A stretch of DNA of 64,000 nt from Escherichia coli (GTDB taxonomy: Bacteria > Pseudomonadota > Gammaproteobacteria > Enterobacterales > Enterobacteriaceae). Each line of letters opens with the position of its first letter. Positions within the stretch are counted from its first letter, which is position 1. This document shows positions 1,661 through 60,505 of the stretch, piece by piece. The notes below the pieces were generated by a model. It searched no databases. It was not told the origin of the DNA and saw nothing but the letters and a program-made list of their open reading frames with translations. The stretch lies in the NCBI RefSeq assembly GCF_003018255.1, contig NZ_CP027440.1, one strand, 5' to 3'. The position numbers and the translations under genes are program-made.

Positions 1661-2995
1661 CTAATCCACCAGAATAATCTTCAGTGCAAACAGAGCTGCG
1701 ACCACCACCACACACAGGTTCAGATCGCGCCAGCGCCCGGTGCACACTTTCATGATGCAGTACGACATAAAGCCGAGTGCAATCCCTTCGGTGATCGAGA
1801 AAGTAAAGGGCATCATCACCGTGGTAATAAACGCAGGTACCGATTCGGTAAAATCATCCCAGTTAACGCGCGCCAGACTTGAGGTCATCAACACGCCAAC
1901 AAAGATTAACGCTCCGGCGGTTGCGTAAGGAGGAACCATCGCCACCAGCGGTGAGAAGAACATAACCAACAGGAACATAACGCCGACCACAACCGCAGTC
2001 AGCCCCGTGCGACCACCGACTGCCACACCAGAAGTACTTTCAATATAGGCGGTAACAGACGAGGTGCCGATAAACGCACCCGCCACCGAACTGACGCTAT
2101 CAACATACAGCGCCTTATTCATATTAGGGAATTTACCGTTACTATCTATTAAGCCAGCTTTATCAGTTACACCAATTAATGTTCCTGATGAATCAAATAG
2201 GTTGATCAGCATAAAGGAGAAAATGATACCGGCGAGTTCAAGTGATAACGCGCCGCTCAAATCCACTTCACCAATGACGCTGCTAATATCAGGCGGAATG
2301 GAATAGACGCCGCTAAAATGAACATCACCGAAAAATAATCCACAGCAAGACGTCACCACAATAGAAACAAGCACCGCGGCATGAAAATGACGTGATGACA
2401 ACACAGTTATAATAAAAAACCCTAAAATACCTAACAACACGCCGTGAGAACTTAAATCGCCAATCATCACCAGGGTGTCTTTATTGGCGACAATAACGCC
2501 AGTATTTTTTAATCCCATTAAGGCGATAAATAATCCGATTCCGCTGGTGATACCAATACGTAAACTTAATGGAATGTTGGAGATCATCCAGTACCGGATA
2601 CGAAACAGCGTGAGCAAAAATAGCCCAACTGCGCCCCAGAATATCGCGCCCATCCCGGTCTGCCAGGAGATACCCATCGCCCCCACGACCACGAAGGCAA
2701 AGAAGGCGTTCAGGCCCATTGCCGGAGCCAGTGCCACGGGTAAGTTAGCAAATACCCCCATCGCAATACTGCCGATACCGGCAATCAAACAGGTGGTAAC
2801 AAACACCACTTTCGGGTCCATTTGTGCCGCACCGAGGATTTGCGGGTTCACAAAAACGATGTACACCATGGTTAAAAAAGTGGTCATCCCCGCAATCAAT
2901 TCTGTGCGGACGGTGGTCCCATGCTGAGGTAGTTTAAATAATCGCGAAAGCGTCCCTGATTCATTACTCACGTAATCGGTATTGTCATTATTCAT
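1661..2995 (-). CDS. adeQ: Adenine permease AdeQ (NCS2 family), 444 aa
   Basis: ORF 1661..3073; NCS2 transporter sequence; start assigned to the ATG at 2993-2995 (MNNDNTDYVSNESG...). Confidence 0.85.
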   Translation of the reverse strand: MNNDNTDYVSNESGTLSRLFKLPQHGTTVRTELIAGMTTFLTMVYIVFVNPQILGAAQMDPKVVFVTTCLIAGIGSIAMGVFANLPVALAPAMGLNAFFAFVVVGAMGISWQTGMGAIFWGAVGLFLLTLFRIRYWMISNIPLSLRIGITSGIGLFIALMGLKNTGVIVANKDTLVMIGDLSSHGVLLGILGFFIITVLSSRHFHAAVLVSIVVTSCCGLFFGDVHFSGVYSIPPDISSVIGEVDLSGALSLELAGIIFSFMLINLFDSSGTLIGVTDKAGLIDSNGKFPNMNKALYVDSVSSVAGAFIGTSSVTAYIESTSGVAVGGRTGLTAVVVGVMFLLVMFFSPLVAMVPPYATAGALIFVGVLMTSSLARVNWDDFTESVPAFITTVMMPFTFSITEGIALGFMSYCIMKVCTGRWRDLNLCVVVVAALFALKIILVD

Positions 2996-3169
2996 TTTTT
3001 TGTCCATTGGAGGAGATTTAATCCCTTGCTTTTGTAAAACAAATGACAACAACGGTTCAGTGATAATTATCACATTTCAATTGCACATTAATGGATATTC
3101 TTTAATAATCTCGCGACGTTTCTTTATGATAAATAATAATCAAATTGATAAAATCAAAATGAGAAAAAT

Positions 3170-4936
3170 ATGAATAATTCTATTAACCATAAATTTCATC
3201 ACATTAGCCGGGCTGAATACCAGGAATTGTTAGCCGTTTCCCGTGGAGACGCTGTTGCCGATTATATTATTGATAATGTCTCTATTCTCGACCTGATCAA
3301 TGGCGGAGAAATTTCCGGCCCAATTGTGATTAAAGGACGTTACATTGCCGGTGTTGGCGCAGAATACGCTGATGCTCCGGCTTTGCAGCGGATTGATGCC
3401 CGCGGCGCAACGGCGGTGCCAGGGTTTATTGATGCTCACCTGCATATTGAATCCAGCATGATGACGCCGGTCACCTTTGAAACTGCTACCCTGCCGCGCG
3501 GCCTGACGACCGTTATTTGCGACCCTCATGAAATCGTCAACGTGATGGGCGAAGCCGGTTTCGCCTGGTTTGCCCGCTGTGCCGAACAGGCAAGGCAAAA
3601 CCAATACTTGCAGGTCAGCTCTTGCGTACCCGCCCTGGAAGGCTGCGATGTTAACGGTGCCAGTTTTACCCTTGAACAGATGCTCGCCTGGCGGGACCAT
3701 CCGCAGGTTACCGGCCTTGCAGAAATGATGGACTACCCTGGCGTAATTAGCGGGCAGAATGCACTGCTCGATAAACTGGATGCATTTCGCCACCTGACGC
3801 TGGACGGTCACTGCCCGGGTTTGGGTGGTAAAGAACTTAACGCCTATATTGCTGCGGGTATTGAAAACTGCCACGAAAGTTATCAGCTGGAAGAAGGACG
3901 CCGGAAATTACAACTCGGCATGTCGTTGATGATCCGCGAAGGGTCCGCTGCCCGCAATCTCAACGCGCTGGCACCGTTGATCAACGAATTTAACAGCCCG
4001 CAATGCATGCTCTGTACCGATGACCGTAACCCGTGGGAAATCGCCCATGAAGGACACATCGATGCCTTAATTCGCCGCCTGATCGAACAACACAATGTAC
4101 CGCTGCATGTGGCATATCGCGTAGCCAGCTGGTCGACGGCACGCCACTTTGGTCTGAATCACCTCGGCTTACTGGCACCCGGCAAGCAGGCCGATATCGT
4201 CCTGTTGAGCGATGCGCGTAAGGTCACGGTGCAGCAGGTACTGGTGAAAGGCGAGCCGATCGATGCACAAACCTTACAGGCGGAAGAGTCGGCGAGACTG
4301 GCACAATCCGCCCCGCCATATGGCAATACCATTGATCGCCAGCCAGTTTCCGCCAGCGACTTTGCCCTGCAATTTACCCCCGGAAAACGCTATCGCGTTA
4401 TTGAGGTAATCCATAACGAACTGATCACGCACTCCCGCTCCAGCGTCTACAGCGAAAACGGTTTTGATCGCGATGATGTGTGCTTTATTGCCGTTCTTGA
4501 GCGTTACGGACAACGACTGGCTCCGGCCTGTGGTTTGCTCGGCGGCTTTGGCCTGAATGAAGGTGCGCTGGCTGCGACGGTCAGCCATGACAGCCATAAT
4601 ATTGTAGTGATCGGTCGTAGCGCAGAAGAGATGGCGCTGGCGGTCAATCAGGTGATTCAGGATGGCGGCGGGCTGTGCGTGGTCCGTAACGGCCAGGTAC
4701 AAAGTCATCTACCGTTGCCCATTGCCGGGCTAATGAGCACCGACACGGCGCAGTCACTGGCGGAGCAAATTGACACCTTGAAAGCCGCCGCCCGTGAATG
4801 CGGTCCGTTACCGGATGAGCCGTTTATTCAGATGGCGTTTCTTTCCCTGCCAGTGATCCCCGCGCTGAAACTAACCAGTCAGGGGCTGTTTGATGGTGAG
4901 AAGTTTGCCTTCACTACGCTGGAAGTCACGGAATAA
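3170..4936 (+). CDS. ade: Adenine deaminase, 588 aa
   Basis: ORF 3170..4936; metal-dependent amidohydrolase motif ([12 protein letters not shown]); divergent from adeQ across an AT-rich intergenic region. Confidence 0.9.
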
Positions 4937-6603: not shown

Positions 6604-6629
6604 GATATGAAGTGAAAAGGTGAGATGCA

Positions 6630-7949
6630 TCACGCTTCGCGCGGTGTCTGGGCGTTCAAAAAGGGCAGTAACAGCAGTGCGGAAACCCCGGCGGCAATGG
6701 CGATAACCACAAAAAATCCGCTCCAGTGCCAGGTATCGAGCACTTTCGCCAGCGGCCAACCAGCAAGCGACGCCCCCAGATAAGCAAACAAGCCGACAAA
6801 CCCCGTCGCCGCCCCTGCCGCCTCTTTGTGGGAACATTCTGCCGCCGCCATGCCGATTAACATCTGCGGGCCAAAGACAAAAAAACCAATGGTGAAGAAG
6901 CAGGTTGCCTGCATCACGTAGCTGGCAAATGGCATCAGCCACAGCGAGCCGACTGAAAGCAAAATTCCGGCGGCGAAAATCAAATTCATCGGCCCGCGGT
7001 TGCCGTTAAACAATTTGTCCGAGCCCCAACCCGCTACCAGCGCACCGATAAATCCACCCAGTTCAAACATCGTCACTGCCGTATTCGCCGTGACCAGATC
7101 GACGCCCAGCGTCTCGGACATATACAAATTGCCCCAGTCGTTGATTGCCGCCCGGACCACATAGACCAGCACATAGCAAAACGAAAGCAGCCAGATATAC
7201 GGATTCAGTAACACATATTTGGTGAGGATCTCTTTACGCGTCAGCCCTGCCCCTTCTTGTTGTTGAGCTATCTCCAGCGCGTCGTGCCGCCATTCACCAA
7301 CCGCCGGTAAACCTAACGCCTGCGGGCGATCGCGCAGCCGCCAGCAGAGAAAAATCCCCACGACTATCGCCATACAACCCGCAATCATCATCCCGGCACG
7401 CCAGCCGTAATGCAGCGCGCTCGCTGCCATCACAATGGGAATGAGTGCGCCGCCGACGTTATGCGCCGTGTTCCATAATGCCCACCAACCGCCGCGCTCG
7501 GTACGAGAATACCAGGCGGTTAACAGACGCGCACACACCGGTGAACCCCAGCCCTGGAAAAAGGCGTTCAACACCCAAAGCACGGCAAACGCCCATAGCG
7601 ACGTCGAGAAGCCAAACAGAATGTTGATAATGCCCGTGGCAATAAGCCCTATCCCCATAAAATAACGGGCATTTGAGCGATCGCTGACAATGCCGGAGAC
7701 AAACTTCGACACGCCGTAGGTAATGTAAAACAGGGTCGCTAACAGGCCAATATCGCTACGGCTGAGCACGCCGTTAGCAAGGATTTCTGGTACGGCGGCG
7801 TTAAAACTTTTACGCGTGAAGTAAAACAGCGCGTAACCCAGCCAGATGGTCAGCAGAATATGCCGACGCCAGTAGCGATAGCGGGCATCAATTTCATGTT
7901 TATCAGTCAGTAATGGCGCATCGGCAGGCGCTTTCAGAAACGGCAACAT
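6630..7949 (-). CDS. uhpC: Glucose-6-phosphate sensor/MFS protein UhpC, 439 aa
   Basis: ORF 6630..7952 (MMLPFL...); second Met taken as start. Confidence 0.9.
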   Translation of the reverse strand: MLPFLKAPADAPLLTDKHEIDARYRYWRRHILLTIWLGYALFYFTRKSFNAAVPEILANGVLSRSDIGLLATLFYITYGVSKFVSGIVSDRSNARYFMGIGLIATGIINILFGFSTSLWAFAVLWVLNAFFQGWGSPVCARLLTAWYSRTERGGWWALWNTAHNVGGALIPIVMAASALHYGWRAGMMIAGCMAIVVGIFLCWRLRDRPQALGLPAVGEWRHDALEIAQQQEGAGLTRKEILTKYVLLNPYIWLLSFCYVLVYVVRAAINDWGNLYMSETLGVDLVTANTAVTMFELGGFIGALVAGWGSDKLFNGNRGPMNLIFAAGILLSVGSLWLMPFASYVMQATCFFTIGFFVFGPQMLIGMAAAECSHKEAAGAATGFVGLFAYLGASLAGWPLAKVLDTWHWSGFFVVIAIAAGVSALLLLPFLNAQTPREA

Positions 7950-43744: not shown

Positions 43745-43760
43745 TGTGATTCGATTCACA
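43745..43760. promoter_or_regulatory. CRP-binding site TGTGATTCGATTCACA at the tna promoter
   Basis: Perfect TGTGA-N6-TCACA palindrome about 90 bp upstream of tnaC. Confidence 0.8.

Positions 43761-53464: not shown

Positions 53465-60505
<7,041 letters not shown>

Follow-up and report, generated by a model that had tools for sequence, protein, structure and literature searches.

A palindrome in the AT-rich spacer between the divergent adeQ and ade genes of Escherichia coli is very probably the core of a cAMP-CRP site

The Escherichia coli genes for an adenine permease (adeQ) and an adenine deaminase (ade, also named adeD) are transcribed divergently from a common intergenic region. The region was analyzed within a stretch of 64 kb, which is referred to as the window, and the features of the locus are compiled in Table 1. 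A preliminary description had recognized the region as the spacer between these two genes, and this is borne out by the RefSeq annotation as well as by the annotation of MG1655, which has an identical 174-bp adeQ/ade gap. In a query of the complete E. coli genomes with 371 bp, adeQ and adeD were named by RefSeq in 5,396 of 5,426 genomes. The spacer had also been described as strongly AT-rich, and this was readily confirmed. Its GC content of 27.0% is far below that of the window (51.4%), an equally high AT content is found in only 0.2% of the 174-bp windows of the 64 kb, and the GC content of the 64 kb is lowest here, with a minimum of 23.6% at positions 3026-3199.

Table 1. Genes, sequence motifs and candidate promoter elements at the adeQ/ade locus; positions are those of the window.
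Feature	Position	Strand	Remarks
Divergent adeQ/ade (adeD) intergenic region	2996-3169		E. coli; 174 bp, 27.0% GC
adeQ (yicO), adenine permease	1661-2995	minus	RefSeq and MG1655 annotation
ade/adeD (yicP), adenine deaminase	3170-4936	plus	RefSeq and MG1655 annotation
-10-like TACAAA	3031-3036	minus	Candidate for adeQ; TAAAAA or TAAAAG in other genera
Probable CRP 22-mer TTCAGTGATAATTATCACATTT	3056-3077		Right half ATCACATTT perfect
Probable CRP box AGTGATAATTATCACA (AGTGA-TAATTA-TCACA)	3059-3074		Dyad centre at 3066.5
Perfect 14-bp palindrome GTGATAATTATCAC	3060-3073		Contains the 12-mer at 3061-3072
Extended -10-like G-A-T-A-n-n-n-T	3094-3101	plus	ade side; TATTCT in E. coli, TAAACT in Citrobacter
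Conserved AATAAT	3104-3109	plus	Alternative ade -10 candidate; CRP would be out of phase for activation, at about -49.5
TATGAT	3125-3130	plus	Alternative ade -10 candidate; start would be at about 3137, CRP at -70.5
Conserved 44-bp block	3126-3169	plus	Directly upstream of the ade ATG; 93% identical across genera
TG-extended TAAAAT	3146-3154	plus	Alternative ade -10 candidate; start would be at about 3161, CRP at -94.5
Four-codon uORF ATGAGAAAAATATGA (MRKI*)	3159-3173	plus	Stop codon overlaps the ade ATG

The extent of the spacer depends on the translational start of adeQ. Positions 2996-3055 contain indels and are poorly conserved across genera, and we therefore regard the annotated ATG at 2995 as the start of the gene. 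A longer reading frame (1661-3073, 470 aa), which would begin with a GTG at 3073 (minus strand, 3071-3073) inside the palindrome, was considered and was not supported by the comparison across genera. On the adeQ side of the spacer the triplet TCC at 3004-3006 is invariant; read on the minus strand, it is a GGA SD motif.

The preliminary description had drawn attention to a perfect palindrome of 12 bp. This sequence, TGATAATTATCA, is indeed present at 3061-3072, and it is the only exact copy in the window; its length had been underestimated, because the perfect symmetry extends over 14 bp. When up to one mismatch was allowed for the 12-mer, two matches were found in the window versus 0.15 expected. 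The sole one-mismatch relative, TGACAATTATCA at 53608-53619, lies within an ORF of 240 aa (53465-54187, minus strand) and looks like a chance match. In 174 bp of the composition of the spacer about 0.05 perfect palindromes of 14 bp and 0.16 of 12 bp would be expected, and the whole window contains four perfect palindromes of 14 bp versus 5.0 expected. The bare symmetry is thus only mildly unusual, and its significance comes from the match to the CRP consensus. The hexamer TGATAA is found four times in the spacer when both strands are counted (at 3061, at 3072 on the minus strand, at 3127 and at 3146), versus 0.40 expected from the composition (P about 0.0002). The palindrome itself accounts for two of these copies; the other two, farther downstream, do not vary between genera.

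The palindrome is embedded in a 16-mer that deviates by one mismatch from TGTGA-N6-TCACA, such that nine of the ten core bases match. The lone mismatch, in the first half-site AGTGA, falls at a position that carries 0.29 bits. For quantification, a symmetric log-odds matrix was built from 150 other CRP boxes of Table S3 of Shimada 2011, and the site under study was excluded from it. The 16-mer reached 15.38 bits, which is above the scores of 87% of the 150 training boxes and ranks second among the approximately 64,000 positions of the window. By chance, 0.097 sites with at least this score would be expected in 64 kb of random sequence and 0.0006 in 174 bp of spacer-like sequence. No other position of the spacer exceeded 5 bits with this matrix; a candidate for a second CRP site, TGTAAAACAAATGACA, has two mismatches, but it scored below 5 bits, is confined to Escherichia and was rejected. 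The top position of the window is TGTGATTCGATTCACA (43745-43760, 15.86 bits), which, judged from the gene order, we take to be probably the CRP site of the tnaC promoter. Third and fourth follow ATTGACCTGAGTCACA (55240-55255, 12.2 bits), which lies within an ORF, and GGTGAGATGCATCACG (6619-6634, 12.0 bits), which is the published uhpT CRP box.

The same 16-mer has already been found experimentally. Table S3 of Shimada 2011 lists it, with the entry 'yicO< >ade AGTGATAATTATCACA', as a CRP target in genomic SELEX-chip analysis, and the site was at that time absent from RegulonDB. According to Li 2021 (PMC8085971), adeD and adeQ are among the 'novel and validated' transcription units activated by Crp; the basis given there is RNA-seq of a crp deletion strain versus the wild type across carbon sources, together with EMSA with Crp-cAMP on the adeD and adeQ promoters. 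We assume that the site predicted in that study is this 16-mer. Neither ade nor adeQ turned up in supplementary text from a Crp ChIP-exo study, which may lack the full list of sites. The proposal of the preliminary description that the palindrome could be a regulator binding site shared by both promoters has thus proven sound: the 16-mer was recovered by SELEX with CRP, and EMSA results and crp-dependence have been reported for both genes. The CRP identity of the palindrome is already in the literature, and the feature is real, but ordinary.

When Ade was used as the query against the species genomes of GTDB, 15 loci from Enterobacterales were retrieved. The divergent arrangement of adeQ and ade, with a spacer that can be aligned, is found in Escherichia, Citrobacter, Cedecea, and Kluyvera. 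In the seven sequences from outside Escherichia (Citrobacter, Cedecea, and Kluyvera), all 12 bases of the two half-sites (AGTGAT...ATCACA, 3059-3064 and 3069-3074) are invariant, whereas the central 4 bp of the box are conserved to only 43% (AATT, AGTT, TGCA, or TACA); the spacer that flanks the box is conserved to 54-59%. GATAAT is replaced by GATTGC in three sequences (both of C. amalonaticus and that of K. intermedia) and by GATTAC in Kluyvera genomosp. 1. Conservation of the palindrome in related genomes therefore applies to its outer bases, whereas its central AATT is variable. The CRP scores of the seven orthologous sites are 14.7-16.0 bits. Judged from this alignment, invariant half-sites around a free centre are the signature of CRP and the reverse of what Fur would require. 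With TAACA in place of TCACA, the box of E. albertii (L004:2890-2905) scores 9.3 bits instead of 15.4, so the CRP site is not universally maintained; a lineage-specific weakening of CRP control is possible in this species. Upstream of ade in Serratia and Morganella no site comparable to the CRP box was found. Upstream of the ade homologue of Serratia sp. DD3 (L011, about 2962-2979) lies TGATAA-CTGCAT-TTATCA, in which the half-sites of the E. coli palindrome recur with 6 bp between them. Near this TGATAA pair lies ATCAAAATGATAA, which resembles the conserved E. coli block upstream of ade. This likeness could be a coincidence or could reflect a common factor that recognizes TGATAA.

Taken as a whole, we consider it highly probable that the palindrome forms the core of one high-affinity cAMP-CRP site, located centrally in the control region from which adeQ and ade diverge. 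The preliminary description had favored a different regulator and had likened the palindrome to a Fur-box half-site. If Fe2+-Fur bound the GATAAT-bearing palindrome, iron status would be linked to adenine deaminase, which is an Fe/Mn enzyme; such a link is conceivable because Mn2+ or Fe2+ reportedly activates Ade. The palindrome shares with Fur boxes (the 19-bp GATAATGATAATCATTATC and the 7-1-7 model TGATAATnATTATCA) a high AT content and, on each strand, the heptamer TGATAAT, a perfect 7-mer Fur half-site. When three published consensus models were compared with shuffled spacers and with the rest of the window, however, none of the matches rose above the background. The 19-bp consensus is matched at 11 of 19 positions, a score that is attained at 564 positions of the window and in 55% of the shuffled spacers, and the best match to the 7-1-7 model (10 of 14) is attained at 84 positions; across the models 38-55% of the shuffled spacers match equally well. 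In addition, the spacing is that of a 6-0-6 and not of a 7-1-7 element, such that the half-sites abut and are 3 bp too close, and each strand carries only one hexamer repeat, whereas a Fur box is expected to have at least three adjacent GATAAT-like hexamers or a good match to the 19-bp consensus. GATAAT is lost in four of the seven sequences from outside Escherichia, in which the 7-1-7 match drops to 7-8 of 14, whereas the flanking GTGAT and ATCAC are invariant. A literature search retrieved no paper that links adeD to regulation by Fur, and Li 2021 (PMC8085971) lists shiA as the only new Fur target. By the criteria of the preliminary description itself, background-level matches together with an unconserved GATAAT core amount to a refutation of the Fur reading, which is extremely improbable, even though the outer bases of the palindrome are conserved.

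The other readings of the palindrome are likewise improbable. The palindrome might be incidental to AT-rich DNA, without any sequence-specific regulator, and the sole role of the spacer might be binding or nucleation of H-NS. The low GC content of the spacer, the published silencing of ade by H-NS (Petersen 2002, as cited elsewhere), and the lack of enrichment of perfect 14-bp palindromes in the window are in line with this. It is nevertheless very unlikely, because the G/C-bearing half-sites are invariant and the AT centre is variable, which is the opposite of a constraint on composition alone, and because SELEX and EMSA results with CRP have been published. In a check for H-NS motifs, as suggested by the preliminary description, no enrichment was seen: the best match to the high-affinity motif TCGATAAATT has 8 of 10 bases (3145-3154), and at a threshold of at least 7 of 10 there are five matches versus 5.7 in random sequence of the same composition. 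GATAAT on both strands (3062-3067 and 3071-3066) could instead represent overlapping divergent -10 hexamers of a symmetric bidirectional core promoter. Each hexamer matches TATAAT in five of six positions, a -10 candidate of a promoter scan overlaps the palindrome, and AT-rich DNA bound by H-NS is known to carry many promoter-like elements. However, the four promoter-like matches in the region versus 1.9 +/- 1.2 expected are not a strong excess. Moreover, GATTGC (three sequences) and GATTAC (Kluyvera genomosp. 1) are not -10 hexamers, and the adeQ leader would start within the CRP box, such that the chance of a bidirectional core promoter is as small as that of a Fur box. Even less credence is due to another regulator, either FNR (TTGAT-N4-ATCAA) or PlaR (YiaJ). 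Eight of ten core bases match the FNR consensus, but the discriminating bases are of the CRP type (GTGA, not TTGA) at both positions and are invariant in all species. For PlaR, a gSELEX-chip peak has been reported for the adeQ/adeD spacer; the best match to its box (ATGACAACAACGGTTCAGTG, 3043-3062) comprises, however, only 10 of 15 specified bases, adjoins the palindrome without covering it, and is restricted to Escherichia. A PurR box was also looked for by eye at about 3110-3125 and was rejected: the sequence agrees with what we take to be the PurR consensus at only 8 of 16 positions, lacks the left half, and is not conserved.

A cAMP-CRP site in the spacer has to be reconciled with the silent state of ade. 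The preliminary description had related the AT-richness to silencing of ade, which fits the published silencing by H-NS: the gene is cryptic and is activated by IS insertions upstream, including insertions within adeQ (Petersen 2002, as cited elsewhere). IS insertions upstream of adeD are also reported to recur in adenine-rich cocultures. The extreme AT-richness of the spacer would provide the substrate for H-NS. Both the silencing and its relief by IS elements are published, and CRP-dependent activation of ade would thus normally be masked by H-NS. In the bgl operon of E. coli, a CRP-dependent promoter is likewise silenced by H-NS and activated by insertion of IS1 or IS5, and better binding of CRP can override the silencing. 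The ade gene resembles bgl in that it is a cryptic catabolic gene with an AT-rich control region, a CRP site, silencing by H-NS and activation by upstream IS insertions. It differs in that its CRP site is common to a divergent transporter gene, adeQ, and we know of no antitermination layer at ade, unlike at bgl. In E. coli ECONIH5 (L038:2374-3476) an IS5 lies directly upstream of a 5'-shortened adeD, and adeQ, the spacer and several neighboring genes are deleted. The query of the complete genomes hit 5,403 places in 5,396 records, which suggests that the region is split in two in about seven genomes, and these split adeQ/ade regions possibly arose from natural IS insertions.

The positions of the putative promoters relative to the cAMP-CRP site were deduced from conserved sequence elements. 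On the ade side, the G, A, T, A, and final T of the extended -10-like element G-A-T-A-n-n-n-T are invariant in nine of nine sequences, and their distance from the CRP dyad does not vary. A transcriptional start at about 3108 would place this element at -14 to -7 and CRP at -41.5. On the adeQ side, a start at about 3024 might place CRP at about -42.5; this geometry is the weaker of the two because TACAAA lacks the final T of the consensus. Since each side of the dyad has a conserved -10-like element at a distance of about 30 bp, a pair of class II promoters is the most economical geometry. At high cAMP concentrations, one CRP dimer would thus activate transcription in both directions from two back-to-back class II promoters. 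Divergent promoters that are activated from one CRP site were reportedly obtained by El-Robh and Busby with synthetic constructs. Alternatively, ade may start farther downstream, at about 3137 or 3161, and be subject to class I activation with CRP at -70.5 or -94.5. The activating IS insertions of Petersen are said to range from -145 to +13. If this range is right, the start with CRP at -94.5 would be excluded, because +13 would fall inside ade.

A single CRP site between divergent units for uptake and catabolism is not peculiar to adeQ/ade, and the same arrangement is found at nagE/nagB, fucAO/fucPIK, glpT/glpA, and araBAD/araC. The sites in these spacers are listed in the same table (Shimada 2011, Table S3) and are of the same symmetric 16/22-bp type, and the adeQ/ade site shares with them binding in vitro and crp-dependence in vivo. 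Its differences are the AGTGA half-site, the centre TAATTA, which yields a longer perfect palindrome than usual, and the fact that one of its targets, ade, is normally silenced by H-NS.

Besides the CRP half-sites, a block of 44 bp directly in front of the ade ATG is conserved. Its identity is 93% across Citrobacter, Cedecea, and Kluyvera and 98-100% in Citrobacter, compared with 78-79% for the coding DNA of ade and 54% for the third codon positions. Within E. coli, the complete spacer is identical to that of MG1655 (174 of 174 nt; L037:2291-2464), whereas adeQ and ade of the strain diverge from their MG1655 counterparts by 2.1% and 2.9%, respectively, and 68 of 1,034 third codon positions of both genes differ (6.6%), so that the stretch does not come from K-12. 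At that rate about 11 differences would be expected in the spacer and none was seen, which indicates a constraint beyond the CRP site alone. The identity to MG1655 reflects either strong constraint or a recombined patch.

The block contains TGATAA twice (3127 and 3146), the arms TTGAT-N3-ATCAA, the extended -10-like sequence TGATAAAAT at 3146-3154, and a weak SD-like GAGA at 3161-3164. It also holds ATGATA-17-TAAAAT, preceded by TG, which is the most promoter-like element of the region. In most genera the ATG of the uORF at 3159 is out of frame with ade; an insertion of 1 nt brings it into the frame of ade in two cases, Escherichia sp. E1V33 and E. whittamii (L001 and L002). No repeats of the block were found elsewhere in the 64-kb window, and the spacer had no match in Rfam at E<=1. 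An RNA element was considered and rejected, since the putative leaders fold no better than shuffled sequences (z = +1.05 and +0.73). The block may conceivably represent an undescribed operator, perhaps purine-responsive, or serve translational control, beside a CRP dimer that drives two class II promoters, but we regard this combined picture as rather doubtful.

The palindrome should therefore carry the label of a CRP site and not that of a Fur-like box. What remains of interest at the locus is the exact geometry of the promoters and the near-invariant 44-bp block upstream of ade. The CRP site would explain the reported crp-dependence of adeQ and adeD, and it would tie the uptake and the deamination of adenine to catabolite control. 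The adeQ/ade region would then represent a second example of the arrangement known from bgl, in which a CRP-dependent promoter lies in AT-rich DNA that is silenced by H-NS and is woken by IS elements.
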